The notes beneath the pieces are model-generated. The model was not told the origin of the DNA and ran no database searches. It worked only from the letters and a program-made list of their open reading frames with translations. A DNA stretch of 32,000 nt from contig NC_016803.1 of assembly GCF_000189295.2 (NCBI RefSeq), positions 1,020,001-1,052,000 of the forward strand, written 5' to 3'. The stretch comes from Pseudodesulfovibrio mercurii (GTDB taxonomy: Bacteria > Desulfobacterota > Desulfovibrionia > Desulfovibrionales > Desulfovibrionaceae). The position numbers were made by a program, and so were the translations under genes. Position 1 is the stretch's first letter. Each line of letters begins with the position of its first letter. Of the stretch, positions 11,285 to 29,976 are shown in pieces.

Positions 11285-11371
11285 GCCGAAGTGGTGGAAT
11301 TGGTAGACACGCATGGTTCAGGACCATGTGGCCGTTCGGCCGTGGAAGTTCGAGTCTTCTCTTCGGCACCA
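11285..11371 (+). tRNA. tRNA-Leu (anticodon CAG), class II with a long variable arm and an encoded CCA
   Basis: Hand-folded. Acceptor GCCGAAG/CTTCGGC. D-arm GTG-GAATTGGTAGA-CAC. Anticodon stem CATGG/CCATG with loop TTCAGGA (CAG). Variable arm GGCCGTTCGGCC. T-arm GGAAG-TTCGAGT-CTTCT. Discriminator A plus CCA. Confidence 0.9.
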
Positions 11372-11386
11372 GTAAAGAACAAGGGT
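11351..11386 (+). repeat. attL: 36-bp direct repeat covering the T-loop to the 3' end of tRNA-Leu plus 15 nt downstream
   Basis: CGAGTCTTCTCTTCGGCACCAGTAAAGAACAAGGGT recurs at 29941-29976 with one mismatch (C11370 versus A29960). Confidence 0.85.
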
Positions 11387-13802: not shown

Positions 13803-14556
13803 GTAAATCTCCTTCCTGAAATTCGGGACAGCGCCCTGGGACAAAGCAGGTCGGACCTTCCCCGTTTGCCGGGAAATGACCTACCTATGGCGTGAATGCG
13901 CCACACAACAACCGACACGGGACAAATCAATGTCCGTTTCCCACAGAAGGAAAAATTCTGAGAATCCATTCAATAAGGGGTGCCACCACGCAGGCTCGTT
14001 CATCCTGCGCATAAAGCGGTGGTCGTGGGGGAATTTCGACAACGGCAGATTTCTAGATACCTGTCGTTTGTCCGGCGAGGGTGCTGTGTTCCAGCCTGGC
14101 GTTTGGATGTAAAAGCGGGCCGTTTGGAAATGAACGGCAGAGAAGTGTTTGGTGTTACGCATGTTAGTGCCAACATAAGCGTTCATAAGTTTTAACGAAG
14201 TCTAAACTGATGAACGCGCCTTGGATGCGTTTTACCTCCTTCCGGTTACTCAACCTGACTGGTTATGCCCTGTCGTATCATCTCGGGAAATCGTCGCGCA
14301 AGGTTCGGCGGATGGGTTTCTGTCCTCCCGCCGATTTTCCCGCGAGCATGACGCAAGCCTGTCCACCTAAAAGTCGTCGCTCAGGGGGCCGAAGAACCAA
14401 GGCCACTTCTATCAGTCGGAACTCCCTGAAATTAGGCCATTGACCGTTTTCTGTATAATGAGTAGGCGGAAGCGACAAATGAATTTTAAAAGGCTCGCTG
14501 CATGGCATTTATCGGCCGTGCAGGAGCCTTCAGTTTCTTATTTGGAGTATGCTCTC

Positions 14557-17667: not shown

Positions 17668-19200
17668 TTAAGCCGTCTGCGCTATCCCCAGTTTCCTCAT
17701 CTTCGCGCGTAGTGTGCTGGGGTTCAATTTAAGTACTTCGGCAGCGCCGTTTGCTCCTGTAATTTTACCGGATGTCATCGTCAAAACTTTCAGAATATGG
17801 CCTTTGACCGCCGTTTCGAATGACAAGTCAGAGATGTCGCTTTCGGATTCAAACCCATCGAGCTTACGACATATATCCTGAAAGAAATCATTATTTGGAG
17901 TTATGGTAAACGGTTTGTCCGGAGAATTCCCCCAAAGAAGAACCGCGCGCTCAACGGCATTTTGCAACTCACGAATATTACCACGCCAGGAGTAAGCGCA
18001 AAGCTTTTTCATCTCACTGCCGCTTACACGTGGAGGATGGCATATCCCTAAGAATGAGCAGCGTTTTTTTATAAAATATGTAATCAATATAGGAATGTCT
18101 TCTCGCCTTTCCCGAAGAGGGGGAATGTATATCGGAAAAATATTCAAGCGATAAAGCAAGTCCTTGCGAAAACGTCCTTCCTCGCACATTCGTACAATAT
18201 TGCGGTGGGTGGCCGCAATGATTCGTACATCGACAGGAATCTCTGTCGAACCGCCGACACGCTCTATAACGCCTTCTTGCAAGACACGAAGAAGTTTGGC
18301 TTGCGCTAAAATTGGGAATTCACCGAGTTCATCCAGCAAAAGCACTCCATTATTTGCTCGTTCAAACCTCCCCTTTACCGTTTCTGTTGCTCCTGTATAA
18401 CTACCGCGCTCATGACCAAATAATTCACTTTCGATAAGATTTTCCGGCATATTTGCGCAGTTTATCTTAATAAACGGCGCAGACCTTCGCACAGAACCTT
18501 CATATATAGTATTTGCGACGACCTCTTTTCCTGTTCCCGTTTCCCCCAGAATGAGAACAGGGAAAGTTTCTCTACTGACCTTCCAGATTAGTTCATTAAC
18601 GTGTTGCATACCAGGAAGGTCCAGAGGGAGTCTTGAGGCATCCTGCATTTGCCATTGTTTTTGAGATGATGGGATTTTATTTTCGCAAAATTTTGTATAT
18701 GAATCGGCAAATTTAAAAAAATATGATACATGTTTATCGCTATATGCATTATTTTTTTTCGAAACTAGTGCAAGAGTAACCGCAAATTTTTCAAAAATTA
18801 TATTTCTGAAGTACATTAATGAAAAATTTTTATTTTTGATGATAGATTTAGTCGCTTGGCACAAAAGGAATTTATCATCCTGATTCGCTATCCTAACTAT
18901 ACGCTTTGGGCTACTATTCATGACAACTCTACCCTGCTCAATGGAAATCATTTGTGTATAGTGCTCTTCATTTATATCAGGTGCAAATATATTGTATTCA
19001 TGCTCGCCATATAAAGTTGCAGGCAGCGCCAACATTATCATATCAACTGGAAATATGTTTTTAAATAAGAAATAAATCGATTTAACCTTTTCACATATCG
19101 ATGAATTATCTAATAGTATGTCTAGATAACTTTGATATAACGCTTTAAACCTATTGGTGACTTTCCCAAGACTTGAAGGAGGTTCATAGTAAACTCTCAT
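17668..19200 (-). CDS. Sigma-54-dependent transcriptional activator (bacterial enhancer-binding protein) with a GAF-like N-terminal sensor and a C-terminal Fis-type HTH
   Basis: 510 aa. Walker A LILGETGTGKEVVA. ESELFGHERGSYTGA (a GAFTGA variant). Walker B VLLLDELGE. RFRKDLLYRLN. C-terminal AAEVLKLNPSTLRAKMRKLGI. No receiver-domain signature. The N-terminal ~195 aa end in a GAF-like FAVTLALVSKKNNAYSDKHVSYFFKFADSYTKFCEN. Confidence 0.93.
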   Translation of the reverse strand: MRVYYEPPSSLGKVTNRFKALYQSYLDILLDNSSICEKVKSIYFLFKNIFPVDMIMLALPATLYGEHEYNIFAPDINEEHYTQMISIEQGRVVMNSSPKRIVRIANQDDKFLLCQATKSIIKNKNFSLMYFRNIIFEKFAVTLALVSKKNNAYSDKHVSYFFKFADSYTKFCENKIPSSQKQWQMQDASRLPLDLPGMQHVNELIWKVSRETFPVLILGETGTGKEVVANTIYEGSVRRSAPFIKINCANMPENLIESELFGHERGSYTGATETVKGRFERANNGVLLLDELGEFPILAQAKLLRVLQEGVIERVGGSTEIPVDVRIIAATHRNIVRMCEEGRFRKDLLYRLNIFPIYIPPLRERREDIPILITYFIKKRCSFLGICHPPRVSGSEMKKLCAYSWRGNIRELQNAVERAVLLWGNSPDKPFTITPNNDFFQDICRKLDGFESESDISDLSFETAVKGHILKVLTMTSGKITGANGAAEVLKLNPSTLRAKMRKLGIAQTA

Positions 19201-19860
19201 CAGGATACCCTTTTAGTTGCTATTTATTTACTGACATTCAAAAAAATATGTCTGTATAGGACAAACCACAAAAAATTCTGTTTATTAATAAACAAACAAC
19301 GTAAAATTCGGTTCGACCCTACGGTCATTGCGTCATGGTAGATTTACAGCGCCCACGCTGACTTCATGCCAGCTAACTCATGTATACGTCTTGCAAAGGT
19401 CGATACGTGCTTTCAAGCAGATCACCAAGACAAAGCCCGGCACGGTCGAGCTCTCATTTTCCTCTCCCGCCAGAAGCGCCTTCATTGCAAAAAGCGTCAT
19501 TCTAAATTGCCCTCCCCAGCCCACGAATCCATACCAAAACTGATCACGCGCTTCCCCGATTATCAAAAAACGGACTGACCGGTTTACGATTTTGGATGGA
19601 TGGCCTTCCGCTTCATCCGCAGACACCTCAGCCGTCTTCCCCTTTTTCCTATCAGGGCATTCGTCAAGGATGCATCCATCTGAGACCATAAGGAAAACCT
19701 ATAGTCGATTTATCGACATAAAACGGTAAACCGTAATTCCACGTCTAACGCAGCCGTTTTTTCAAAATGTGTTCCCTTAAAAAAAGCCTAACCAGCCTGT
19801 AATTATCAACAGGAATACATTCAACACGTTTCTAGCAGACACGGGGCCAGCTGTCACCGA

Positions 19861-19883
19861 ATAAGACGATAAAAACGTCTTAT
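19861..19883. promoter_or_regulatory. Candidate enhancer (UAS): inverted repeat ATAAGACG-N7-CGTCTTAT
   Basis: Perfect 8-bp arms. The centre lies ~70 bp upstream of the -24 element and ~95 bp upstream of the expected TSS. Assignment to the EBP is inference only. Confidence 0.3.
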
Positions 19884-19939
19884 TTGACGACATGTATGGT
19901 GGATTGTTTTTATGTATTTGTAATATTTGAACTTTTTTT

Positions 19940-19954
19940 TGGCACACATATTGA
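19940..19954 (+). promoter_or_regulatory. Sigma-54 (-24/-12) promoter
   Basis: TGGCAC-ACATA-TTGA versus consensus TGGCAC-N5-TTGC: correct GG/-12 spacing, one mismatch. It is preceded by a T8 run. It lies 58 bp upstream of ATG 20012, which has RBS AAGGAG at 20001-20006. The EBP gene is divergent. Confidence 0.7.
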
Positions 19955-20011
19955 TATAAATTTCACAACTCATGTTGAACCCTGTATCGTAGAACTATAA
20001 AAGGAGAAGTC

Positions 20012-21967
20012 ATGAAACGACCGAAGAGAGTGTTGCTTGTTGGTATTGACGGAGCAGTACCCGGGCTTGTTGAAAAACATATTGCGGAGGGGATTTGCCC
20101 CAATTTTAAAAAGATTTTCGAAGGTGGCGTGAAGAGTTTGAATAGCCTTTGCCCCATGCCTACCATCACGCCGCCCAACTGGACGACGATCTCCACTGGC
20201 GCCTGGCCCGTTACGCACCAGATTACTGACTATTGGAGGCACATTCCCGGAACATCGCCCAATGCCGCCAACACCGAGATGAACTTCAGCGGCGAACGCA
20301 TCAAGGCTGAAACCATTTTCGAGGCGGCAGAGCGCGCCGGGAAGAAATCCATCGTCGTCAACTATCCTACCAGCTACGGCATTCATAAACGCCTGAAAAA
20401 TTCAATTGTTGTCGGCGGTTCTGGCCTGAGCGTGGGAACCATTCAAGATAACGAAACGTCGAAAAATCTTGGCGCCCCGTATGCGGGCGGACAAATTTTC
20501 TGCGACGACCTCATCGTCGGTTCTGCCTACCACCCGGGTGGTATCGTCAGCGATTTTTCACCGGCCAAAGATTGGGAAAACGTTCACGAGCTGGGTGACG
20601 ATCCGATGGAAATCGAGTTCGACCTGCCTTTCGAAAAAAGCCCCTTCAAGCCGCAAAAGCATACTTGGTATTGGCTGATCAGGGACGTCGAAGGCGACGG
20701 CTATGACACGGTCACCCTTTCTCCGTCGCGGAACTTTGATGATGCCTTCTTCACCCTCAAGCTCGGCGAGTGGAGTGACAGGGTTTTTGCCAACATCCGG
20801 CTTGAGGATGGAAGCGTCAAGGAAGTCGCCTTCCTTGGAAAAATTCTGAAATTGAATGACGATGGCACCGACTTTGATTTTTACCTTACGCAAATGCTGA
20901 ACACCGATGGCGACCTTTGGTGCTTCCCCAATAAAGCCGCAGCTTCGCTTCGCGACATCGAAGCCGTGCCTACGACAAAGGCTGGCTTCCTGCTGAGGAT
21001 GATGGGCTGGTACGATGACGAGATGTTCTCCGAACTTATTGAAATGCACAACAAGTGGCTCGGTGAAGCCCTCGTTTCGTTGATGGATAACAACGAATGG
21101 GATTTGTGCTTCTTCCATACCCACCCGACGGATTCGGTCTATCACTACATGATGACGGAGCTTGATCCGGATACGTGCAGCTCCAAGGAAGCGCACGAAC
21201 ATGCATGGGAGTTCCATCGTCGTTTGTACAGATCCACCGATGCCATGCTTGGCAAACTGATTGATTACGTGGGGGAAGACACGGCGATCATCCTTGTCTC
21301 CGACCATGGTTCAAAGGCGGACGGCGCTCCGTTTTCTCCTGTCAATGCCTTGATGGACGCTGGTCTTCTTGTGGCCGATGACACCAAGGAGCCCAACGAA
21401 GCAATCAAGCTTGCCATGAAGAATCTGAGCAAGGAAATGGCCGAAGCCATGCGCAAGAGCGCGGCGGAACCTGTCATTGAAAAGTGCAAAGCATTCCCCC
21501 AGAGGGCCTGCTATGTGTACGTCAACCTCAAGGGACGCGACCCGAACGGTATTGTTGAACCCGAAGACTACCACAAGGTCCAACGGGAAATCATTGACGC
21601 GCTTTACACCTATGTCGATCCTAAGACGGGGATTCGACCTGTCGCGTTGGCGCTCAGCAAGGAGGATGCGCTGGTCATCGGCATGGGTGGCGAACAGTGC
21701 GGTGATGTCGTCTACAGCCTCTATCCCGAGTTCGGTATGCAGCACGGCGCATTCCTCGCCACCGCCAAGTGGGGTATTGGCGATCTTCATACCATGGGTG
21801 TCTTCTACGGCCCCGGTTTCAAAAAGGGGTTCGAGATGGAGCGAGTGACACAACTTGCCGACATCGTGCCCACCATTTGTTATATGATGGGCCTGCCGTA
21901 TCCCAAGACGTGTGAAGGAGCTGTTCTTTACCAGGCTCTCGAAGAGCCCGATTCCTACACCTGCTGA
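20012..21967 (+). CDS. Cytoplasmic alkaline-phosphatase-superfamily hydrolase (type I phosphodiesterase/nucleotide pyrophosphatase, Thr-nucleophile class) with a large insertion
   Basis: 651 aa, no signal peptide. VLLVGIDGAVPG (metal Asp). CPMPTITPPNWTTISTGAWP (PSxTxPN-type nucleophile motif). HPTDSVYH (DxxxH). AIILVSDHGS. GMQHGAF. C-terminal DIVPTICYMMGLPYP. Confidence 0.82.
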   Translation: MKRPKRVLLVGIDGAVPGLVEKHIAEGICPNFKKIFEGGVKSLNSLCPMPTITPPNWTTISTGAWPVTHQITDYWRHIPGTSPNAANTEMNFSGERIKAETIFEAAERAGKKSIVVNYPTSYGIHKRLKNSIVVGGSGLSVGTIQDNETSKNLGAPYAGGQIFCDDLIVGSAYHPGGIVSDFSPAKDWENVHELGDDPMEIEFDLPFEKSPFKPQKHTWYWLIRDVEGDGYDTVTLSPSRNFDDAFFTLKLGEWSDRVFANIRLEDGSVKEVAFLGKILKLNDDGTDFDFYLTQMLNTDGDLWCFPNKAAASLRDIEAVPTTKAGFLLRMMGWYDDEMFSELIEMHNKWLGEALVSLMDNNEWDLCFFHTHPTDSVYHYMMTELDPDTCSSKEAHEHAWEFHRRLYRSTDAMLGKLIDYVGEDTAIILVSDHGSKADGAPFSPVNALMDAGLLVADDTKEPNEAIKLAMKNLSKEMAEAMRKSAAEPVIEKCKAFPQRACYVYVNLKGRDPNGIVEPEDYHKVQREIIDALYTYVDPKTGIRPVALALSKEDALVIGMGGEQCGDVVYSLYPEFGMQHGAFLATAKWGIGDLHTMGVFYGPGFKKGFEMERVTQLADIVPTICYMMGLPYPKTCEGAVLYQALEEPDSYTC

Positions 21968-21975
21968 TAAGTTTA

Positions 21976-22013
21976 GGGTTTCCGGGGGCACTCCCCCGGA
22001 AACCCCTTTTTTT
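21976..22013 (+). terminator. Strong intrinsic terminator/attenuator immediately after the hydrolase gene
   Basis: GGGTTTCCGGGGG (21976-21988), loop CACT, CCCCCGGAAACCC (21993-22005), then C plus T7 (22007-22013). It starts 9 nt after the stop and ends 33 nt before the tctC start. Confidence 0.75.
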
Positions 22014-22045
22014 AAAAAGGCAGTTGAACAAAAGGGGAAGTTACC

Positions 22046-22999
22046 ATGATCCGAAGAAAATTCTGTTTGATCACAATTTCGATTTTTGCCCTGCTCATTT
22101 CTTCATTTGGTATCGCACAGGCCGGATGGCCTGAGCGCCCAGTCAAATTTATTTTGGGGTCGCAGCCGGGGTCATCCATTGATTCAATCGGCAGAATCCT
22201 CGCAAAGCTTTTATCCGAAAAGTTTGGCCAACCTTTCGTTGCAATGAATATTACCGGAGGTGCTCTTGGAGCATTTCCCATGACAATGAAAAACAGCAAA
22301 AACGATGGATATGTCATCGGCATGGGCGCCGATATGAACTTTTCCTATACAGGATTAGAAAAAACAGCAGATTTTAACTTTGATGATTTTGATTACCTGT
22401 GCAGTATATTTAAAGGTGATTGCAGTTTTATCTGTAGCGGAACAAGGGAATGGACAAACATCAAGGACGCATTGGAAGATGTGAAGGCGCAGAGTAGACC
22501 GCTTATTTATCTTTTCCAGACATCTAAAGATCGGCTTATGATGCAGGAGTATGCAAAGCAGGTCGGAGCACAAATCAACTGTGTTCCCAGCCGCGGCCCC
22601 TCGTCCATCATCAGTTCTTTGCTGGGTGGGCACAGCGATGCCGGTTTCAGCGGCGGTGTTCATTATCCGCAGGCCAAAGCCGGAAAAATCAAGACGCTGA
22701 CCATGACTACCAGCAATCGCTCCAGCAACTATCCGGATGTGCCCACCGCGAGCGAACTGTTCGATCCTAGCTACGTTATGGACGCGTTACGCATCATCGT
22801 TGCCCCCAAAGGCTTTCCTGAGGAGGCCAGAACGGAATGCTTGAAGGCCATTTCTGAAGTCATCACAACCGATGAATTTAAAGCATTCGTCAATAACATG
22901 CATTTCGTGATCGATTATCATGAAGGCGAGGACTTGCAGAGGATATTGGACAGGCAGGTTATTGAAAACAAAAAAATGCTTGGTGACGCAGCGAAATAG
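22046..22999 (+). CDS. tctC: Tripartite tricarboxylate transporter (TTT) periplasmic substrate-binding protein, TctC/Bug family
   Basis: 317 aa. Signal peptide MIRRKFCLITISIFALLISSFGIAQA. WPERPVKFILGSQPGSSIDSIGRILAKLLSEKFGQPFVAMNITGGALG...NDGYVIG matches the TctC N-terminal signature. Confidence 0.87.
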   Translation: MIRRKFCLITISIFALLISSFGIAQAGWPERPVKFILGSQPGSSIDSIGRILAKLLSEKFGQPFVAMNITGGALGAFPMTMKNSKNDGYVIGMGADMNFSYTGLEKTADFNFDDFDYLCSIFKGDCSFICSGTREWTNIKDALEDVKAQSRPLIYLFQTSKDRLMMQEYAKQVGAQINCVPSRGPSSIISSLLGGHSDAGFSGGVHYPQAKAGKIKTLTMTTSNRSSNYPDVPTASELFDPSYVMDALRIIVAPKGFPEEARTECLKAISEVITTDEFKAFVNNMHFVIDYHEGEDLQRILDRQVIENKKMLGDAAK

Positions 23000-23067
23000 C
23001 ATCTGATCATGGGGCATTCTATGAATGCCCCATGTATGATGATTCACCGAAATACGAGGAGAGTATT

Positions 23068-23517
23068 GTGTATCGAGCAAATGTCATATCATATATTTTT
23101 TGTATAATATTCAGCTTGGTATTTTTATTGTGCTTAATACAGAGACAGTGCCCGGTATGGCCTGGATTTGGAATACCTGCAACGTACTTTCCGACATTAT
23201 TGTGTTCCGTAATATTAATATGTTCAACTGTGGCTCTTTGTAAAACAATTTTCGATAAGTACAAGTTGAAGGTTGTCGATAGTATAAAAATCGATAAGTC
23301 CCTGTTTTGGGGGCTGCTGAAGTACACTATTGCGATTACTGCCTGCATGCCTTTGATCTGTTACTTCGGATTCATCATAGGCGGCTTCATATCCATGGTA
23401 ATTTTCCAATACTTGATTGGCAGTCGGAAAATAGTCCAGATCGTATGCATTTCAATTATAACAGTATTAGTTCAGTATGCGGCCTTTTGGTATGGACTAA
23501 AAATTATACTCCCATAA
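23068..23517 (+). CDS. tctB: TTT small membrane subunit, TctB family
   Basis: Four predicted TM helices, at the expected position between tctC and tctA. I prefer GTG 23068 (RBS AGGAGAG 23057-63) to the ORF-track ATG 23032, which sits inside the hairpin at 23009-23033. Confidence 0.65.
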   Translation: MYRANVISYIFCIIFSLVFLLCLIQRQCPVWPGFGIPATYFPTLLCSVILICSTVALCKTIFDKYKLKVVDSIKIDKSLFWGLLKYTIAITACMPLICYFGFIIGGFISMVIFQYLIGSRKIVQIVCISIITVLVQYAAFWYGLKIILP

Positions 23518-23527
23518 GGACACAATA

Positions 23528-25033
23528 ATGGACGCAAGTATCTTAAATGGCATCTTTGATGCCTTTAACATCGTAAATATCAGCTATGTGTTTGTCGGCG
23601 TTGCCCTGGGGGTAATCGTCGGCGGTATTCCCGGTCTGTCAGGACCGATCGCGATCGCCATGGTCATCCCGATCACCTACTTCATGCCTGCCGTCGGAGC
23701 CATCGGCTTTTTGGTCGGCATCAACAAGGGCGGTTGTTTTGGAGGGTCCATCACGGCCATCCTGCTCAATACGCCTGGAGCACCAGAGGCAACAGCAACA
23801 ACATTCGATGGGTACCCACTGGCCCAATCCGGGAAAGCCGGTAAGGCGCTCAAAGTTTCTCTGCTTTCATCGGTGATTGGCGATCTGTTCTCCACATGCT
23901 TGGTCATTGCCATTGCCAGCCCTATCGCCTCGATCGCCTTAAAAATGGGGCCTGCTGAAATCGCGGCCATCCTGATACTCGCATTGACCATGATCGCGCT
24001 CCTGGAGAGCGAATCTTTCCTCAAAGGGATCATCGCATCCTGCTTTGGTCTGTTCTTCAGCACGGTCGGCATGGAACCTGTTGCCTCGCAAGCCCGATTC
24101 AGTTTCGGAATTTACCAGTTGGAATCCGGACTTTCTATCGGCGCCATGGCAATCGGAATGCTCGCCGCAGCCGAAATCGTCCGGCAGGCAATAGAGCTCA
24201 ACAAGGAGCAGGGCGTTAACCTTTCCTGCCTGAAAAAAGAAGACAAAAAGAATAACAACCTCAGCGTAAAAGAACTGATTTCGTTGATTCCGACCTGGCT
24301 TCGCTCCTCGCTTGTCGGCTCATTCATTGGCACCTGCCCTGGGCTGGGCTCAACAGTGGCCTGTTTCATGAGCTACGGTATCGCCAAAAAAATGGGTAAA
24401 CCCGGCGAAAAATACGGGACCGGAGAAATCAAGGGCGTAGCCGCGCCTGAAGCCGCGAACAATGCGGTTGTCGGTTCGTCACTCATCCCGCTTTTTACCT
24501 TGGGCATACCGGGGAGTGTTGCCGCATCTCTCCTTGTCGGAGCCTTCGTTATTCATGGAATCACACCTGGTCCTCTGATGTTCGAAGAACATGGCCGTGA
24601 AGTCTATTCGATTTATGGCTGCATGATTGTTGGTAATATTGCGGTTCTCATCCTTGGATATCTTGGAATCAAGATTTTTGTGAAGGTTCTTGAAGTACCC
24701 AAACAGATTCTTTACCCAATCATTCTTTTTACATGCGTTGTCGGCACGTACATTATGGAAAGTGATCCTTTTTATGCCTATGTCATGGTGTTCTTCATGA
24801 TAATCGGGTTCTTAATGAAGATTACTGAATTCCCATTCGTCTCCTTTGTCATTGGTTTTGTGCTGGGAGGCTCTCTGGAGATATCTTTACAGCAGACTCT
24901 TATCATGTCGAGCAATCACATATCTGTTCTTTTTACCAGACCTATATCCGGCTCAATAATGGCAACAACCATGATTGCCATCCTATACTCTGGATATAAG
25001 TACTTTAGGCAGATCAGGATTACCCACAACTAA
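23528..25033 (+). CDS. tctA: TTT large permease subunit, TctA family
   Basis: 501 aa and highly hydrophobic. GVIVGGIPGLSGPIAIAMVIPITY, GGSITAILLNTPGAPEA and FIGTCPGLGSTVACFMSY are typical TctA motifs. Confidence 0.9.
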   Translation: MDASILNGIFDAFNIVNISYVFVGVALGVIVGGIPGLSGPIAIAMVIPITYFMPAVGAIGFLVGINKGGCFGGSITAILLNTPGAPEATATTFDGYPLAQSGKAGKALKVSLLSSVIGDLFSTCLVIAIASPIASIALKMGPAEIAAILILALTMIALLESESFLKGIIASCFGLFFSTVGMEPVASQARFSFGIYQLESGLSIGAMAIGMLAAAEIVRQAIELNKEQGVNLSCLKKEDKKNNNLSVKELISLIPTWLRSSLVGSFIGTCPGLGSTVACFMSYGIAKKMGKPGEKYGTGEIKGVAAPEAANNAVVGSSLIPLFTLGIPGSVAASLLVGAFVIHGITPGPLMFEEHGREVYSIYGCMIVGNIAVLILGYLGIKIFVKVLEVPKQILYPIILFTCVVGTYIMESDPFYAYVMVFFMIIGFLMKITEFPFVSFVIGFVLGGSLEISLQQTLIMSSNHISVLFTRPISGSIMATTMIAILYSGYKYFRQIRITHN

Positions 25034-25047
25034 AGGTTCAAAAGGTT

Positions 25048-26340
25048 ATGAGCAATAAGAATATTAATATCCCCCTGCTTAACAGGCCACTGGTGATTCT
25101 CGGCCTGTTGTGCATAATGTACTGCTTTAGCTTCTTCCACCGGGCATGCATTGCTGTGCTGTCTGTCGATATCATGAATGATTTTGCGATGACGACAGCG
25201 AATATTGGATTAATAGGTTCCGCAACGATGCTCGGCTATGCTTTAAGCCAGGTTCCCACGGGAATATTTACAGATCGTTTTGGAGCCAGAAAAACCTTGT
25301 TTGTTTACCAGATACTTGCTGGCATTAGCGCTATTTGCTTTGCGTATTCCACGGACTGGAAGTTCGCTGTTGCCTCAAGATTTGTGCTGGGGTTGACGAT
25401 AGCCGTAAATGTCCCTGCGTTGAAACACCTTGCACTTTGGTTGCCTGCAGCATGGTATAGCAAGGCTTCAAGCATCCTTTTAACCTTCGCTACAGTCGGA
25501 ACATTTCTCGCCTCGACCCCTCTTGCTTTTGCTTCCAGCGTCTGGGGATGGAAGTTCTGCCTTGTCGCTGTCGGTGTGGCAACCATTGCCCTCGCTTTGA
25601 CCGCATTATTTGGCCTCAAGGACAGGCCGGAGAATCAGATCCTCGCATCACACGAGCCAGAACGAAAGATCAGTCTATCGGTTATCTTTTCCAAAATAGT
25701 CCGCGTCCGCAATTTCTGGCTGTTGTTTATTTGGTTTTTGATCATGGTCGGTAATTTGTATGTCCTTTTCACCATGTGGTGGGGAACCTATCTGATGCAG
25801 GGGGTAGGGTTGGACAAGAATGAGACCGGATTATGTCTGTCCATAATGGCTATTTGTTCTGCTATCGCAATGCCTCTTTTCGCAGTACTTTCCGATAATA
25901 TTCTTCATTCAAGAAAAAAGATTCTTGTTATCGGGTCTGTGGTCGCTTCACTCCTCTTATCCGGCCTGTGTTTTGGTTTCACCGGACACTCAGTACCGGC
26001 ATTGGCTTTTATTAGTGCTTGTTTGAATATTGCATTTGTCGCACCTGCTCCAATGGTCTTTACAATGGCTAAGGAGTCATTGCCGGAGGAAGTGATAGGA
26101 ACTGCATTCGGAATTCTCAATTTTGGTGCCCCTATATACGCATCAATAATTCAATGGATATTTGGTCTTGTTGTTAACAGCGGAATGGAATCCGGTAATA
26201 CAATTTTGGAATCCTATTCATCAGCTTTTATTATGATACTTGCTTTTACGATGATTGGTTTTGTTGCAACATTTTTTATGAAAGATACTTTTACTAGTGA
26301 AGAATGCTATGCGGACCTTGCCACAGAAAAAAGCCGATGA
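25048..26340 (+). CDS. MFS transporter (anion/organo-anion permease type; subfamily not resolved)
   Basis: 430 aa, ~12 TM. MFS signature GIFTDRFGARKTL between TM2 and TM3. The N-terminal FFHRACIAVLSVDIM is COG2271-like. It starts 14 nt after tctA. Confidence 0.88.
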   Translation: MSNKNINIPLLNRPLVILGLLCIMYCFSFFHRACIAVLSVDIMNDFAMTTANIGLIGSATMLGYALSQVPTGIFTDRFGARKTLFVYQILAGISAICFAYSTDWKFAVASRFVLGLTIAVNVPALKHLALWLPAAWYSKASSILLTFATVGTFLASTPLAFASSVWGWKFCLVAVGVATIALALTALFGLKDRPENQILASHEPERKISLSVIFSKIVRVRNFWLLFIWFLIMVGNLYVLFTMWWGTYLMQGVGLDKNETGLCLSIMAICSAIAMPLFAVLSDNILHSRKKILVIGSVVASLLLSGLCFGFTGHSVPALAFISACLNIAFVAPAPMVFTMAKESLPEEVIGTAFGILNFGAPIYASIIQWIFGLVVNSGMESGNTILESYSSAFIMILAFTMIGFVATFFMKDTFTSEECYADLATEKSR

Positions 26341-26581
26341 ACTTGTTTTGGAATATGTTCGAGTGCTGGCTAATGCAAAAGGATTTGGACTAAGTTTTTT
26401 AGAACCGTATGTGATTTTGTCCAAAATACAAATTACTGAAATTGGTAAAACTACTTTTGAATATGCATGGCAGAAAACCCCGCTATTTGTGCTTGAACGC
26501 AATCTCGCAGGGGGGCGCGATGTATGGACTGTAAAAACGACTAATAACATCGTTATCGATGAGTTTTGCGTAACAATCTAA
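26309..26581 (+). CDS. Small hypothetical protein (~90 aa) with no recognisable motif
   Basis: The ORF overlaps the MFS 3' end by 32 nt (44 nt from the GTG at 26297). It is on the operon strand and ends 16 nt before the next gene. No similarity recognised. Confidence 0.4.
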   Translation: MRTLPQKKADELVLEYVRVLANAKGFGLSFLEPYVILSKIQITEIGKTTFEYAWQKTPLFVLERNLAGGRDVWTVKTTNNIVIDEFCVTI

Positions 26582-26597
26582 CGGATAGGAGCAAATT

Positions 26598-27179
26598 ATG
26601 GCAACGGGAAAAACAGCTGTCCTTGTGTTTACATCTCTCAACGAAGGGATTTTCTCGGACCAAAAAACTTCTGGAATGATGAAGTTGTTTAATGAAGGCA
26701 CCGCCGCCCCGCTGACGGTAAAAAAGGATTTTCGTATCGAAACCTTATCTGGTGCCGAGTCGGGTGAAAGCGTTGTCGATGCGGCACACAAAGGCGGTTA
26801 CGTCATGGAAGAACTGTCCGACGCAACCGAATTTTATGTAGCCGATTGCGTTACGAAGGAATCTTTCGCCGAGTTGATGAAAGAGGCAACGGCGCTGGAT
26901 CCGAAAAAAACGCTTATTACGATTGTCAGTCCTTCCGCGGTGTTGTTTTCCGGGCTGGGTGTAAAAAAGAATGTGAAATTGTCGACTCCCATTCCTGCCT
27001 CAAGCATCGCCCCCACCTTGGCCCTGATCGCAGATCTGCCGCTTCCCGCCCAGGTTGCCTATCCGCCGGCATATGCAGTCCTTGATGGTCTGGATTTCAA
27101 GGCACGGGAGTTCGCCGAGATGAAACGCACGATGGATGGGCTGATGAAAAACATTGAGGAAGCGAACAGCCAAAATTGA
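26598..27179 (+). CDS. Mini AP-superfamily-like protein, paralog 1 (predicted non-catalytic)
   Basis: 193 aa, RBS GGATAGGAG. It aligns collinearly with paralog 2. It has by-eye similarity to the N-terminal strand, the DHG strand and the C-terminal 34 aa of the 651-aa hydrolase, but the catalytic residues are replaced (see findings). Confidence 0.7.
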   Translation: MATGKTAVLVFTSLNEGIFSDQKTSGMMKLFNEGTAAPLTVKKDFRIETLSGAESGESVVDAAHKGGYVMEELSDATEFYVADCVTKESFAELMKEATALDPKKTLITIVSPSAVLFSGLGVKKNVKLSTPIPASSIAPTLALIADLPLPAQVAYPPAYAVLDGLDFKAREFAEMKRTMDGLMKNIEEANSQN

Positions 27180-27257
27180 TGGCACTGCCATCCAGACAAT
27201 TGAAAGACTGACATAGGCGTATATTAACTATCAGTTTATAAGCTAGAAGGTGTAATT

Positions 27258-27860
27258 ATGATTACGGGTAAGACTGCAGTTTTGATCTTTACTACGTTAT
27301 CCGATGAGGCTCTGAAGAACAGTGACAACTCCGATATCGGCAAGCTTTTTCGCAAGGGTTCCGCTGTACCATTGAAGGCTGAAAACGATTTGCGGACAGA
27401 AGCTCTGGCCGGTTCAACGATGGGCGAAAGCATTGTCGAAACCGCCAAGGCGGCTGGCTATAAAACTGATGAACTCGGATCCGATACGGACTTGTACGTC
27501 ACCGAAGCGGAAACTGAGGAACAGTTGGCGTCGATTTTGTCTGTTGCTTATACTGTTGGCGTCAGCAACACGCTGATTATCCTCGCCAGTCCGACTTTGG
27601 CCATTTTCTATGGCCTTGGCATTCAACGAAAGGTTCAATTGAAAGAGCCGCTCAATGCAACTTGCATCGCTCCGACGATTTCCTGGATTGCCGATATTCC
27701 CTACCCGGCAGATGTTGAGGCCGCCCCTGCGTACCCCGTACTGAAGGGTTTGAACTTCAAGGCCGGCGAAATGGCAAAACTCAAGAAGTCTCTTGATGCG
27801 CTGACCTTGAACATCGAAAGAGGCAACCTCAAGCCTTGGGACAAACACGATTGCGCGTAA
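27258..27860 (+). CDS. Mini AP-superfamily-like protein, paralog 2 (predicted non-catalytic)
   Basis: 200 aa, RBS AGAAGGTG. Roughly 35-40% identity to paralog 1 over the full length without gaps (by eye). FYGLG...IAPTISWIADIPYP aligns gaplessly with FYGPG...IVPTICYMMGLPYP of the hydrolase. Confidence 0.7.
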   Translation: MITGKTAVLIFTTLSDEALKNSDNSDIGKLFRKGSAVPLKAENDLRTEALAGSTMGESIVETAKAAGYKTDELGSDTDLYVTEAETEEQLASILSVAYTVGVSNTLIILASPTLAIFYGLGIQRKVQLKEPLNATCIAPTISWIADIPYPADVEAAPAYPVLKGLNFKAGEMAKLKKSLDALTLNIERGNLKPWDKHDCA

Positions 27861-27877
27861 TGTCCGACTAGGCATTG

Positions 27878-27917
27878 TTCGATTTCTGCGGGGAATTAAA
27901 TTTCCGCAGGAATCGAA
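27878..27917 (+). other. Long RNA stem-loop between mini-AP paralog 2 and the DsrH-like gene
   Basis: TTCGATTTCTGCGG (27878-27891) pairs with CCGCAGGAATCGAA (27904-27917): 14 bp with one G-U, and a 12-nt loop. No T-tract follows. Confidence 0.45.
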
Positions 27918-27963
27918 CCATCCTTGATTCTTAGACGCTAAATTCCGGCAAGGAGAACTCGTA

Positions 27964-28245
27964 ATGCTCTTTTTCTTAAACAAAACTGGTAAACTAAATG
28001 TAGACCTTATTGGTATGATTTCTGGTGGAGAAGAATCGAGTCTTCTCCTTGTCGGAGACGCGGTGACCCTGGGCACTCCGACGGGACAGGAACTCTTGTC
28101 CGATTTCGAATTCGAAGACGTATTCGTACATCGCGATGCCGTCGAGGCAAGGAACATTTCCCTGTCTGAACGGTGCGTGCCCGTTACGTATTCTGACATG
28201 GTCGACATCTTGATGAACCATGATGGTCAGATCGTTTCTTTGTAG
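27964..28245 (+). CDS. DsrH/TusB-like small protein
   Basis: 93 aa, RBS AAGGAG. LLLVGDAVTL, then VFVHRDAVEARNI and VTYSDMVDILMNHDGQIVSL, match the DsrH/TusB pattern (LLL.DGV...DL.ARG...idy..fV.L......v.sW). Confidence 0.65.
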   Translation: MLFFLNKTGKLNVDLIGMISGGEESSLLLVGDAVTLGTPTGQELLSDFEFEDVFVHRDAVEARNISLSERCVPVTYSDMVDILMNHDGQIVSL

Positions 28246-28265
28246 CAACCGACGACGAGGAAATC

Positions 28266-28664
28266 ATGCCCAAGACACTTACTTTACTGCTGATGTCCGG
28301 TTCCGCCGAAAACGAGGACGCTGAATTCGCCACAAAACTGAGTTCGGCAGCTCTTGAAAAAGGACATCGTGTTCAAATCTATCTTTTCGGCAATGCGGTG
28401 AATCTTTCCAAAAAGGAATTCCCCATAGAAGGCGATCTTCATATCGCTCCGATGCTGATTGAGCATATCGAACCAACAAAAAGCTTTACAAGGATTGCAG
28501 AGTTATGCCGCGAAGGCGCCGACATTTCAACATGCCATACTAATGAACACGCCCGGGGCATCGAGTCACGAGAGTATATCGATGGAGTAAAATGGGGAGA
28601 TGTTGGAGGGACATTTACAAAATATCTTCTCGGATCCGATGTATTACTTTCAATCTCGCACTAG
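28266..28664 (+). CDS. DsrE/TusD-like protein with the conserved active-site-position cysteine
   Basis: 132 aa. LTLLLMSGSAENEDAEFATKLSSAALEKGHRVQIYLFGNAV, then ADISTCHTNEHARGI (the C-x6-RG position equivalent to the DsrE/TusD persulfide-carrying Cys), then DVLLSI at the C-terminus. Confidence 0.75.
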   Translation: MPKTLTLLLMSGSAENEDAEFATKLSSAALEKGHRVQIYLFGNAVNLSKKEFPIEGDLHIAPMLIEHIEPTKSFTRIAELCREGADISTCHTNEHARGIESREYIDGVKWGDVGGTFTKYLLGSDVLLSISH

Positions 28665-28721
28665 CTCAAACGGCTAGTCCTTTTGGGGCATTGTAACTTA
28701 TGCATTCCAATAGAGGTTAAT

Positions 28722-29054
28722 ATGATTAATTCACTCGTGTTGTTTGTCAACAAACCACTTGGGGTAGAGTTGTCCGCCCTTGGTGTCAGGACGGCCTGGG
28801 CATGTCATGAAAACTCTTTTGACGTAAAGTTGATTTTTCTTGGCGACGGGGTGTGGTGTGCGACTGACAAGCGCGGCTACCATGCTGAAATGATAAAAAG
28901 ACTCATCGAAAATGATGGCGAAGTTTTTTGTGTGGAAGAAAGTCTGAAAGAACAGGGTATCGATCCGGACAGCCTCATCGAAGGTATTGATGTTGTGCCC
29001 CGTGAGGAGATCTGTGATTTCTGTGAAGACGTTGAAAGTGTTGTTTCATTCTAA
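28722..29054 (+). CDS. DsrF/TusC-like protein
   Basis: 110 aa from ATG 28722 (RBS AGAGG). LVLFVNKPLG...LGVRTAWACHENSFDVKLIFLGDGVWC, then EVFCVEESLKEQGI and DVESVVSF, follow the DsrF/TusC pattern. Confidence 0.7.
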   Translation: MINSLVLFVNKPLGVELSALGVRTAWACHENSFDVKLIFLGDGVWCATDKRGYHAEMIKRLIENDGEVFCVEESLKEQGIDPDSLIEGIDVVPREEICDFCEDVESVVSF

Positions 29055-29070
29055 ATAAGGATTAAATACC

Positions 29071-29508
29071 ATGCCAGAAGTTACTTTTGCAAGAAACGTT
29101 GCTACCGGAAAAGATACGTACAAGCTTGGTTCTTGTTTCTCCGAAGAATTTGTTTTTGACTTGAACTCTGTTTCTGTTGAAGAACGAAATCAGGATCACA
29201 CCGGAGCCAGGTTGTTGTGCGCTGCAGCACTCGCGTGCTTCTGCAACACTTTTTACAACGAGCTTGTCAACTCTGGTGCTGAAGTCAAATTTATCCACGC
29301 TTCAGCAAACACTGAAAAAGAACAAGACCTGACTATGAGAACGCATTATTGCGCTATGAGTATTGAATTAGAAGCTGGAATGAACGAAAAATATATGCAT
29401 ATCTTTGATGAAGTTGCGGAGCATATGCTCAATGGATCACTGCTTACATATAGCCTTGAAGAAGCAATGAGCATTGATTACAACTTCAAGTTAACTTTTG
29501 TTGATTAA
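29071..29508 (+). CDS. OsmC/Ohr-superfamily-like protein
   Basis: 145 aa, RBS AAGGA. GARLLCAAALACFCNTFYNEL resembles the OsmC helix motif (P.ELL.AAL..C). The canonical second Cys (CP motif near the C-terminus) appears replaced (EHMLNGSLL). Last gene of the array. Confidence 0.6.
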   Translation: MPEVTFARNVATGKDTYKLGSCFSEEFVFDLNSVSVEERNQDHTGARLLCAAALACFCNTFYNELVNSGAEVKFIHASANTEKEQDLTMRTHYCAMSIELEAGMNEKYMHIFDEVAEHMLNGSLLTYSLEEAMSIDYNFKLTFVD

Positions 29509-29555
29509 TATTTGACACAACATACTGACGCAATTAACGCCTCCATCCTAAAACA

Positions 29556-29587
29556 GGGGTGCCCACGGTGCGAGCCATGGGCACCCC
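29556..29587. terminator. GC-rich hairpin downstream of the array (possible terminator)
   Basis: GGGGTGCCCA (29556-29565), 12-nt loop, TGGGCACCCC (29578-29587). It lies 48 nt after the OsmC-like stop. There is no clear T-tract on the + strand. Confidence 0.4.
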
Positions 29588-29940
29588 ACCCCTCGCCACT
29601 TCATATAATAAAGTTTAACATTACGCCGAGTAGATATAAAACATCCGTCCATGACGAAACGTTTTATCGATATGCCTGACAAGCGCAGCCTTATCTGACC
29701 ATCACCATAATCACCCAAAAGGTAACCCCCTGCCCTGGTTAGAAAACAGAGCAAGGCGTGGCTTTCCAGAAACGTGGTGGGTATTTTTTGAAATAGATCC
29801 GCCATCATTACAGTTATATCCTTCCAGTTGCTGAAGCTAGGTCAAAACGGTAGGTCAACGTGCAAATACAAAGGACACGTCAAAACACAATAGACAAACA
29901 AAATCACAATATTGCCGCACAGCTGAAAAGTTGGGACTTC

Positions 29941-29976
29941 CGAGTCTTCTCTTCGGCACAAGTAAAGAACAAGGGT
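29941..29976 (+). repeat. attR: displaced copy of the tRNA-Leu 3' end (36-bp direct repeat)
   Basis: CGAGTCTTCTCTTCGGCACAAGTAAAGAACAAGGGT, 35/36 identical to 11351-11386. GC rises sharply immediately to the right. Confidence 0.85.

Follow-up and report, generated by a model that had tools for sequence, protein, structure and literature searches.

Analysis of a 32,000-nucleotide stretch of the genome of Pseudodesulfovibrio mercurii ND132 (contig NC_016803.1, positions 1,020,001 to 1,052,000 of the forward strand; from now on referred to as the window, with coordinates counted from its first letter) revealed an accessory locus in which the gene for a sigma-54 enhancer-binding protein (EBP) faces 12 same-strand genes (20012-29508). 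Two of the encoded proteins, the hydrolase and mini1 (DND132_0964), are 100% identical to ND132 proteins. The locus combines an NPP-type hydrolase of the alkaline phosphatase (AP) superfamily, two transporters, a conserved protein of about 90 residues, two small AP-like proteins, a DsrH-E-F-like trio and an OsmC-like protein, and represents an undescribed multi-component elaboration of an AP-superfamily enzyme. The element that ties these parts together is a conserved C-terminal segment ending in ...PWDKHDCA (from now on the Cys tail), which had been overlooked in a preliminary description of this DNA. The regulator and the 12 genes are as follows:

17668-19200, minus strand: sigma-54 EBP, 510 aa (Pfam Sigma54_activat 2e-64, AAA_lid_14 6e-17)
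20012-21967, plus strand: NPP/AP-superfamily hydrolase, 651 aa, putative catalytic subunit (PF01663 2e-29)
22046-22999, plus strand: TctC (Pfam TctC 1e-22)
23032-23517, plus strand: TctB (Pfam TctB 7e-11)
23528-25033, plus strand: TctA (Pfam TctA 9e-136)
25048-26340, plus strand: MFS permease of the anion:cation symporter type, 430 aa (MFS_1 6e-42)
26309-26581, plus strand: orf94, conserved protein of about 90 aa (no Pfam match)
26598-27179, plus strand: mini1, putatively dead AP paralog without Cys tail, 193 aa (44% identical to mini2)
27258-27860, plus strand: mini2, putatively dead AP paralog with Cys tail, 200 aa (tail PWDKHDCA at 27834-27857, Cys199 at 27852-27854)
27964-28245, plus strand: DsrH/TusB-like protein, 93 aa (PF04077 6e-6)
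28266-28664, plus strand: DsrE/TusD-like protein, 132 aa (PF02635 1e-4, just at the cut-off)
28722-29054, plus strand: DsrF/TusC-like protein, 110 aa from Met14 (PF02635, the DsrE model, 3e-9)
29071-29508, plus strand: OsmC-like protein, 145 aa (Cys56 at 29236-29238)

Successive genes, in the order hydrolase, tctC, tctB, tctA, MFS, orf94, mini1, mini2, dsrH, dsrE, dsrF and osmC, are separated by 78, 32, 10, 14, -32 (overlap), 16, 78, 103, 20, 57 and 16 nt. The open reading frames (ORFs) and coordinates of the preliminary description were found as it had given them, with the exception of its count of same-strand genes, which was 11 rather than 12. It had also correctly recognized a complete TctCBA transporter plus an MFS permease, all of which pass Pfam cut-offs, an intact Thr-nucleophile AP/NPP hydrolase, two tandem pseudo-enzyme-like mini-AP proteins and a DsrH/E/F-like trio, and had noted the absence of the usual partners of such proteins. 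None of those it listed is present; in particular, tusA, dsrC, rhodanese, phn, pst and pho were not found among the scanned window ORFs. Judged from profile scores, each part belongs to a known superfamily and none appears to qualify as a PhnA, PafA, TusB/C/D or OsmC equivalog. A published description of the hydrolase family, of the tail or of the combination was not found in the searchable open-access literature, in line with the earlier remark that the gene combination could not be matched to any described pathway.

The hydrolase, the mini-AP proteins and the Cys tail

The hydrolase scores 103.5 bits against PF01663 (cut-off 23), in two stretches, and shares with the NPP/PhnA/PafA branch of this family the common alpha/beta core, a complete two-metal site (Asp13; Asp374/His378; Asp431/His432; His578) and a Thr nucleophile, Thr53 (20168-20170), which aligns with the Thr64 nucleophile of PhnA. 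D13, T53, D374, H378, D431, H432 and H578 are all invariant in 12 diverse homologs (38-77% identity). An AlphaFold2 model (pLDDT 79.7, pTM 0.82) gave Foldseek matches of probability 1.0 to PafA, SPAP, PhnA and NPP with target-normalized TM-scores of 0.5-0.64. Sequence identity to these solved relatives is only 11-14%, and the protein further differs from them by a beta-rich insertion of about 230 residues, by its apparently cytoplasmic and catabolic setting, by the helix and Cys tail found in its family and by its linkage to thiol proteins. We know of no characterized AP-superfamily enzyme with such partners. Since the start codon lies only five residues ahead of the first core strand, the hydrolase lacks a signal peptide and is predicted to be cytoplasmic. 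Its best sequence match in the PDB is the phosphonoacetate hydrolase 3szy (1.5e-6); the corresponding equivalog model TIGR02335 is matched over the N-terminal 110 residues only and with 38 bits against a cut-off of 408. Scores against the PafA equivalog NF042991 (29 versus 650 bits) and the type I sulfatase family PF00884 (16 versus 25 bits) are likewise below cut-off. Type I (formylglycine, PF00884) and type III (MBL, SdsA-like) sulfatases are recurrent neighbors of the family, and the type I enzymes share the AP-superfamily fold, but the hydrolase carries its Thr in a T-x-T-P-P-N context (nucleophile region PTITPPNW) with two metal sites, is not of the MBL fold and has no C/S-x-P-x-R formylglycine motif.

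The two mini-AP proteins align over residues 2-170 with residues 419-651 of the hydrolase (hhalign probability 99.2%, E 6e-20). They are devoid of metal ligands, D431 and H432 being replaced and the H578 region deleted, and on this basis appear to be catalytically dead paralogs of the C-terminal third of the hydrolase. Their residues 113-200 find a match at the far C-terminal end of long hydrolase homologs (phmmer 1e-16), where a listing of C-termini showed a conserved helix followed by ...R-x-P-W-D-K-H-(D/E)-C-A-stop. The hydrolase of the window lacks this long tail and ends in ...DSYTC. In the family as a whole, either the full-length hydrolase has the tail or a separate mini-AP protein has it, never both. 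A mini-AP gene is located near 14 of 48 tail-less and none of 27 tailed hydrolase genes (p = 0.0013, not corrected for phylogeny). An exhaustive profile search of 1.84 billion representative sequences returned only 60 matches, and nearly all of the mini-type ones end in the tail. The distribution supports the view that the mini-AP protein may stand in for a tail that is part of the hydrolase itself in other family members. The idea of the preliminary description that the small proteins could be non-catalytic subunits of the hydrolase gains substance in this form for its mini-AP part. Attempts at a fold search with an AlphaFold model of mini2 were abandoned at a pLDDT of 51 (6-sequence alignment), and hhalign was used instead.

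Mini1 lacks the tail, as does its ortholog P0122 in locus L088 (78% identity; L and P numbers refer to individual loci and proteins of the survey described below). Intermediate forms exist as well: P0189 (406 aa) and P0223 (451 aa) are tailed AP paralogs of intermediate length, the former with its nucleophile Thr replaced, and P0172 (316 aa, metagenomic) is a natural fusion of orf94-like and mini-AP sequences (BLASTP 2e-7). Together, these three proteins suggest a stepwise shrinkage from full paralog to mini-AP. For orf94 itself, the ATG at 26309 is the most probable start codon; the protein then has 90 aa, the same length as in L088. It has 7 distinct orthologs, the one in L088 being 74% identical, and is confined to the clade of ND132 and Mailhella, where it is always located directly upstream of a mini-AP gene. 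Kinship of orf94 with AP-fold fragments or with the proteins of about 90 aa in BCCT-type loci was rejected at hhalign probabilities below 1%.

Many tail-less hydrolases carry a Cys a few residues from their C-terminus (L013-L016, L020, L023, L024, L026, L033 and L048), within endings such as ...NFRPACK, ...RPACCKK or ...DAYTCK; the ...DSYTC of the window is encoded at 21944-21964. These may represent a second, shorter type of Cys terminus.

Spread of the module and its thiol proteins

A genome-wide scan identified 547 confirmed relatives of the hydrolase, with hosts in the Desulfovibrionaceae (notably Mailhella), Desulfobacterales, Desulfarculia, Syntrophaceae, Dehalococcoidia and other Chloroflexota as well as Thermoprotei. 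Most hosts of the module are dissimilatory sulfur metabolizers. For a neighborhood survey, all ORFs of 83 non-redundant loci of Desulfobacterota, Chloroflexota and archaea were searched with the window proteins. An OsmC-like gene is present in 40 of the 83 loci and the DsrH-E-F-like trio in 14, all of which also encode OsmC-like. The closest orthologs, found in Mailhella (73-78% identity), comprise an EBP, a divergent hydrolase gene, TctCBA and/or MFS, orf94, one mini-AP and an OsmC-like gene. A search with the DsrE-like protein as an independent anchor recovered Maridesulfovibrio salexigens, Taurinivorans muris, Desulfobaculum bizertense and Salidesulfovibrio onnuriiensis; these four cultured genomes combine the trio with a family hydrolase, mini-AP, OsmC-like and a sigma-54 activator, here with BCCT and EamA transporters. 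On these grounds the gene set reads as a conserved module and not as a chance mix. The preliminary description had raised the question of whether these genes co-occur in other genomes. For the module the survey is clearly positive, but the trio proved optional, with dihydrolipoamide-dehydrogenase-like (Lpd-like) and GcvH-like proteins present instead in other loci.

The ND132 locus combines segments from two lineages; this mosaic structure had previously gone unnoticed. Starting with the activator and up to and including mini2, its genes most resemble loci of the Mailhella type, whereas those for DsrH, DsrE, DsrF and OsmC-like have their closest counterparts in the BCCT type (DsrE 77% identical; OsmC-like 54% identical, versus 28% to OsmC-like proteins of the Mailhella type). 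The order MFS, orf94, mini1, mini2, DsrH and DsrE is nevertheless kept at 72-87% amino-acid identity on a contig of another organism (L088). Transporters differ from locus to locus (TTT, TRAP, MFS, BCCT, EamA, ABC), which means that the family probably acts on one functional group borne by different scaffolds. In the window, the three adjacent Tct genes (22046-25033) constitute a complete tripartite tricarboxylate-type transporter (TTT), a set also encoded in L001, L009, L010 and L011. The top NCBIfam match of the MFS permease is the D-galactonate-transporter subfamily (2e-39, under its cut-off).

Further observations concern individual loci. Chloroflexi loci add acyl-CoA ligase, SDR, DUF169 and TetR genes. 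In two Desulfovibrionaceae metagenome-assembled genomes (SRP242652_co1_18 and co2_123) the hydrolase family is expanded to more than 10 loci in a single genome (L013-L020, L026, L028, L029, L032, L043, L044, L047, L072 and L078); many of these have their own divergent sigma-54 activator, and most are without tail, mini-AP and OsmC-like. A Desulfarculia chromosome (OY759352, L082) encodes TRAP, hydrolase, mini-AP, an alkyl-sulfatase-like gene, OsmC and DsrH-E-F, and because several transposase genes flank this module on both sides, it appears to be mobile in more than one lineage. In Desulfobaculum bizertense (L086), a glycyl-radical enzyme gene (PFL-like plus Gly_radical; 18133-18399, minus strand) lies about 1.4 kb past the activator gene of the BCCT-type module and could encode a choline or isethionate lyase, in which case it would be substrate-related; the gene extends past the edge of the retrieved locus.

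Assignment of the OsmC-like protein relies on its family. Taken alone, the window protein reaches 15.3 bits against the Pfam cut-off of 27.5 (E 0.027); a profile of 18 orthologs, in turn, aligns over 100 residues with E. coli OsmC (1qwi) at 3.6e-8 and lends support to the OsmC-like label given to the protein earlier. A single-sequence PDB search likewise gave no match for OsmC-like and E 0.05 for DsrE-like, and family profiles were used instead. Cys56 is conserved in 36 of 36 sequences and aligns with the peroxidatic Cys59 of OsmC. The position of the resolving Cys is Ser123 in the window and a Cys in about 50% of orthologs. OsmC/Ohr proteins are lipoyl-dependent thiol peroxidases. The proteins described here appear to share their fold family, have the Cys at the Cys59 position and are followed by Lpd-like and GcvH-like genes in some loci, but differ in the unconserved resolving Cys, in the window protein falling below the Pfam cut-off and in a gene that is tied to a Cys-tailed AP protein and not to stress regulons. 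This tie is quantitative: with a tail on either carrier, an OsmC-like gene is found within 8 kb in 30 of 41 cases, but without a tail in only 9 of 34 (p = 7e-5, not corrected for phylogeny), and in tandem arrays of Chloroflexi it is located behind the tailed copy, not the tail-less one. An Lpd-like flavoprotein is encoded in 6 loci, directly after OsmC-like in L001, L046, L055 and L071, and a GcvH-like lipoyl carrier stands beside Lpd-like in L021, L046, L055 and L071. The overlap between the 6 Lpd-like loci and the 14 DsrHEF loci is zero. Together with the lipoyl dependence of OsmC/Ohr, these neighbors suggest that OsmC-like is redox-cycled and that DsrHEF-like and Lpd/GcvH proteins are alternative partners.

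The DsrH-E-F-like proteins resemble DsrEFH type I and TusBCD in being three adjacent paralogs of the DsrE superfamily. The dsrF ORF opens at 28683, and its start was set at Met14 (28722) by alignment to 110-aa orthologs. DsrH-like orthologs are present in 13 other loci, and DsrE-like falls into 45 homolog clusters, many of them in cultured Desulfovibrionaceae. Cys90 of the DsrE-like protein (28533-28535), in the motif T-C-H-T-x-E-x-x-R-G, is invariant (10 of 10) and may occupy the Cys-x6-R-G position of the family, aligning weakly with that of YchN (1jx7, E = 0.17), which makes it a candidate counterpart of the active-site Cys78 of DsrE/TusD; the DsrE-like profile matches DsrE (2hy5) at 1e-3 over the N-terminal half only. 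The differences from DsrEFH/TusBCD are substantial. The gene order is H-E-F, unlike dsrEFH or tusDCB, and the three proteins remain below the NCBIfam equivalog cut-offs (TIGR03011, 33.8 versus 49.2; TIGR03012, 16.2 versus 89.3; TIGR03010, 25.3 versus 94.2 bits). The partners here are an AP-fold hydrolase and OsmC-like, and the hosts are sulfate or sulfite reducers and not sulfur oxidizers. DsrC/TusE, TusA or a dsrAB context were not found in the window, nor DsrC/TusE or TusA in the surveyed related loci. A second type of DsrEFH (YeeE-TusA-DsrEFH, the 'YTD' cluster), which is missed by sequence annotation, has been described with synteny to yeeE and tusA and an active Cys67 (Plum-Jensen et al. 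2026, PMC13293266); its listed cultured carriers include no Desulfovibrionaceae and none of the module hosts found here. Both type II and the present trio are non-canonical, occur in hosts with reductive DsrAB and have a single functional (here putatively so) Cys in DsrE. The trio described here differs by Cys90, by its weak Pfam matches and by its AP hydrolase and OsmC neighbors, and no tusA or yeeE/yedE synteny was observed in the 14 trio-bearing loci. Identity with type II was rejected on context, Cys position and host lists, a separation that is based on the published description.

Regulation of the locus and the genomic island

The EBP consists of a clade-specific N-terminal sensor (residues 1-190), an AAA+ domain (PF00158, 216 bits) and a weak C-terminal HTH_8. 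Its sigma-54 contact loop (residues ~266-271, in the 18400-18420 region) reads GSYTGA, a variant of the canonical GAFTGA loop found in the orthologs of L004, L011 and L082. The divergent EBP is kept in orthologous loci. A GAF-like sensor, as proposed in the preliminary description, received no backing at the level of sequence searches, neither from Pfam with five orthologous N-termini nor from a PDB profile search, and was dropped. The following regulatory features were identified around the hydrolase gene and at the end of the array:

19852-19892, no strand assigned: 17-nt inverted repeat TGTCACCGAATAAGACG / CGTCTTATTTGACGACA (repeat search)
19940-19955, plus strand: sigma-54 -24/-12 element TGGCAC-N5-TTGAT, 71 nt upstream of the hydrolase ATG
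21976-22005, plus strand: terminator-like hairpin between the hydrolase gene and tctC, 13-bp stem with 10 GC pairs, then CTTTTTTT
29556-29587, no strand assigned: 13-bp GC-rich hairpin at the end of the gene array, 48 nt past the osmC stop, with a T-run on the minus strand only

Because sigma-54 patterns are not significantly enriched inside the window, the promoter call rests on comparison. An equivalent element is located 51-74 nt upstream of the hydrolase start in every close ortholog (L001, L004, L006, L008 and L011) and likewise in distant loci (L015, L020, L047, L048, L064, L066 and L068). Under a GG-N10-GC test, the -12 part of the window promoter is TGA and not TGC, while orthologs have TTGC. 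The inverted repeat, about 50-90 nt upstream of the -24 element, is by its position a candidate EBP binding site. At 811 nt the intergenic region between activator and hydrolase genes (19201-20011) is unusually long and has a higher-GC core (19300-19700, GC ~0.5) between AT-rich ends. Its direct repeats, 22 nt and 13 nt long, lie at 19239-19313, and it also contains an ORF of 103 aa (19378-19689, minus strand) without Pfam match. It might represent the relic of another gene or hold regulatory sites.

The hairpin that parts the hydrolase gene from the downstream genes was not mentioned in the preliminary description. A GC-rich hairpin occupies the same spot in orthologous loci (L001, L004, L006, L008 and L009), Mailhella ones among them, with a U-tract in the window only, and BCCT-type loci have long structured spacers. 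The window hairpin probably acts as an attenuator or as a 3' stabilizer of the mRNA, and its location suggests that hydrolase and downstream genes are expressed at differing levels.

The locus sits in an island of about 18.6 kb integrated at tRNA-Leu(CAG), as the 3' end of the tRNA forms part of a 43-nt direct repeat that recurs at the right border:

11285-11371, plus strand: tRNA-Leu(CAG), island integration site (ARAGORN; Rfam tRNA 54 bits)
11344-11386: 43-nt direct repeat, left copy, containing the 3' end of tRNA-Leu
29934-29976, plus strand: 43-nt direct repeat, right copy, 91% identical to the left one, right island border

These borders and the conserved -24/-12 element agree with the earlier view of a sigma-54-controlled accessory locus. 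The island was acquired horizontally. GC content drops from 0.70 to 0.56 at tRNA-Leu and returns to 0.68 from 30001 on; with flanks of about 0.68, values of 0.54-0.61 in its left part (11-17 kb) and 0.39-0.54 in its right part (17.5-30 kb), the island is both low in GC and composite. Beside the tRNA, an ORF at 11606-11893 (plus strand) matches DUF6538, an integrase N-terminal domain, at E 9e-6, just under the cut-off. No intact integrase was found in 11.4-14.4 kb, where the other ORFs are without Pfam match; with this sub-threshold fragment as the sole trace of a functional enzyme, the island integrase looks decayed. An Rfam scan of the island matched the tRNA alone, and a plasmid-database search with the left part returned a single match of 60 nt. 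Just upstream of the activator gene, the island also encodes a 977-aa fusion of a FAD-linked oxidase (GlcD-like), 4Fe-4S dicluster and CCG domains (14440-17373, plus strand); with one weak match in the 83 loci it was rejected as a part of the module. The flanking core genome carries the selenocysteine machinery genes selB (457-2364) and selA (5597-7003), both on the minus strand, together with genes for an M18 peptidase, an MCP, a transporter and a GMC oxidoreductase.

Proposed function, alternatives and implications

An analogy for the Cys tail may be found in CysH (PAPS/APS reductase, ECGLH tail) and in DsrC/TusE (penultimate-Cys arm), which also carry a conserved Cys on a mobile C-terminal segment. 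The CysH tail Cys takes the sulfuryl group as S-sulfocysteine, which is resolved by thiols, and the DsrC/TusE Cys accepts sulfur from DsrEFH or TusBCD. No sequence or fold kinship links these proteins to the module, and for the tail of the module a role of this kind is deduced from its conservation and its co-occurrence patterns. As for the substrate, two unrelated sulfatase families recur: SdsA-type MBL alkyl sulfatases are encoded in 9 loci, in L082 within the operon between mini-AP and OsmC, and PF00884 sulfatases in 6 loci. The preliminary description had supposed that a carboxylate carrying a phosphoryl, thiophosphoryl or sulfuryl group is imported and cleaved, with a sulfur or reactive product handed to Cys-bearing proteins; the sulfuryl option fits best, given the two sulfatase families nearby and the invariant Cys of DsrE-like and OsmC-like. 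A cytoplasmic enzyme, dedicated importers and an EBP of its own point to catabolism.

Expression data are available for T. muris, which has no Sat and does not respire sulfate, yet keeps the module, and whose authors called the dsrEFH trio copy 'enigmatic' (PMC10507020). In pure culture the cluster is silent on taurine, sulfolactate and thiosulfate (0-3 transcripts per million), whereas in the mouse gut transcripts of hydrolase, BCCT, DsrH and DsrE-like rise together in one of three mice (188, 83, 70 and 41, compared with 8.5, 0, 0 and 0 in the lowest mouse; PMC10507020). Elsewhere in the genome of T. muris LT0009, genes for dihydrolipoyl dehydrogenase, OsmC and GcvH form a cluster of their own that is well expressed (TAUVO_v1_1662-1665; PMC10507020), which suggests that this trio is a general unit in Desulfovibrionaceae.

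We tentatively favor, as a reading that is possible but short of probable, that the locus is a substrate-induced catabolic module built around a thiol-relay-coupled esterase, with a sulfuryl group or oxidizing equivalents passing through a Cys relay. An effector would activate the divergent EBP, which would then fire the -24/-12 promoter. A carboxylate-bearing organic anion, most likely a sulfate ester, would enter by TctCBA and/or the MFS permease and its ester bond would be cleaved by the cytoplasmic two-metal Thr-nucleophile hydrolase. The latter may pair with mini1 and mini2, probably also with orf94, and mini2 would provide in trans the mobile tail found in cis elsewhere in the family. 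The tail Cys could take the transferred group, proposed to be sulfuryl, as Cys-S-sulfonate, to be resolved by the invariant Cys56 of OsmC-like. The adduct might then be passed to, or re-reduced through, the DsrH-E-F-like complex (DsrE Cys90), a part that would be played by NADH, Lpd and lipoyl-GcvH in other genomes. Products would be the alcohol and sulfite, the latter feeding DsrAB, instead of sulfate; sulfate ester to sulfite is the net reaction we infer as most likely. In its strict form, an AP-superfamily enzyme that hands its leaving group to a Cys on a mobile arm, in cis or on a dead paralog, for a thiol relay to resolve, with reductive cleavage of sulfate esters to sulfite, this proposal must be called doubtful.

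A number of points weigh against this reading. To our knowledge, every characterized Thr/Ser-nucleophile two-metal enzyme of the AP superfamily catalyzes phosphoryl or phosphonyl transfer, the AP-fold sulfatases known use formylglycine, and the nearest relatives of the hydrolase in sequence and structure are PhnA, PafA and NPP. By our estimate, the thiol-driven reduction that yields sulfite from a sulfate ester would at best come close to being thermoneutral. Neither structural nor interaction evidence puts the tail at any active site, the mini-AP model (pLDDT 51) being too poor for use. Of the tail-bearing genes, 11 of 41 have no OsmC-like gene within 8 kb (counts uncorrected for phylogeny), and the trio is absent from the closest Mailhella orthologs and so is not essential to the core reaction. 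Sulfatase neighbors would fit equally well if the hydrolase attacked another group of the same substrates. Finally, the strong terminator-like hairpin after the hydrolase gene leaves co-transcription of the 12 genes unproven.

The leading rival, which we hold to be unlikely, makes the locus a phosphoester or phosphodiester catabolic module whose hydrolase would be a common phosphodiesterase or phosphatase of the NPP type and would use a phosphorylated organic acid brought in by the transporters or, in BCCT-type loci, phosphocholine or glycerophosphocholine. Fold, nucleophile and metal ligands are typical of phosphoryl-transfer enzymes, BCCT transporters would suit choline phosphoesters, and NPP6 and NPP7 are known to act on such compounds. 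The Cys tail would then be an active-site lid or supply an extra metal ligand, for which its His, Asp and Cys are all plausible, and OsmC-like, DsrHEF or Lpd/GcvH would just keep the tail Cys reduced or redox-gate the enzyme; the separate expressed Lpd-OsmC-GcvH cluster of T. muris marks this trio as a general thiol-repair system. It should be noted, however, that no pho, pst or phn genes or other Pho-type context were seen in the 83 loci, that the neighbors are sulfatases and not phosphatases, that almost all hosts are sulfur-metabolizing anaerobes and that a dedicated three-subunit DsrEFH-like complex would be odd for the upkeep of one cysteine. Quite unlikely, in our view, is a plain hydrolytic esterase accompanied by a detoxification set, in which the Cys proteins scavenge sulfite, persulfide, an electrophile or a peroxide by-product and the tail is structural or regulatory and unrelated to them. 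In its favor, thiol peroxidases of the OsmC family classically have a protective role, binding of sulfane sulfur or thiosulfonate is known from the DsrE family, and a rhodanese is encoded near the M. massiliensis locus; yet OsmC-like tracks the tailed copy specifically, even within the tandem arrays of Chloroflexi, a resolving Cys is kept in about 50% of its orthologs and replaced by Ser in the window, and the hosts live strictly anaerobically.

A PhnA-like hydrolase of C-S or C-P bonds next to a carboxylate (sulfoacetate, sulfopyruvate or phosphonoacetate analogues), with the tail Cys of the C-S variant capturing a sulfonyl group and sulfite being freed via the thiol relay, seems more improbable still. 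Phosphonoacetate hydrolase is the top match in both PDB and NCBIfam, but this match is confined to the N-terminal ~110 residues and lies far below its cut-off, as given above. Sulfolactate, isethionate, taurine and 2,3-dihydroxypropane-1-sulfonate are known to be taken up by systems of the TTT and TRAP types (SlcHFG, DctPQM), and the T. muris locus adjoins a cuyA-type cysteate cluster; against this, the recurrent neighbors are ester-acting sulfatases and not sulfonate enzymes, and the T. muris cluster is not expressed on sulfolactate or taurine. Chance juxtaposition of unrelated accessory genes stacked by horizontal transfer is strongly disfavored and close to negligible. The two-lineage mosaic in a composite island and the hairpin behind the first gene would agree with it, but the same combination recurs across phyla with other gene orders and transporters, was recovered from two independent anchors and is tied together by fusion and fission events, and the ND132 arrangement is kept in the second organism mentioned above.

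If the thiol-relay-coupled esterase is real, it would give a first functional context to the 'enigmatic' DsrEFH-like genes that sulfate and sulfite reducers, T. muris and M. salexigens among them, carry, and would add a multi-subunit, thiol-coupled member to the AP superfamily, which ranks among the best-studied of enzymes and where phosphoryl/sulfuryl promiscuity is a classic question. It would further represent an unrecognized route from organosulfates to sulfide, both for gut inhabitants (Mailhella, Taurinivorans) and for those of anoxic sediments (Desulfobacterota, Dehalococcoidia), hosts that have expanded the hydrolase family to many paralogs per genome. Sulfite-respiring anaerobes without sulfate activation, such as T. 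muris, could then respire organosulfates and spare the ATP of activation, and the dissimilatory sulfur cycle would gain a new entry point for organic sulfur. Even if the substrate is a phosphoester, the split-or-fused Cys tail and the mutually exclusive DsrHEF and Lpd/GcvH partners stand.

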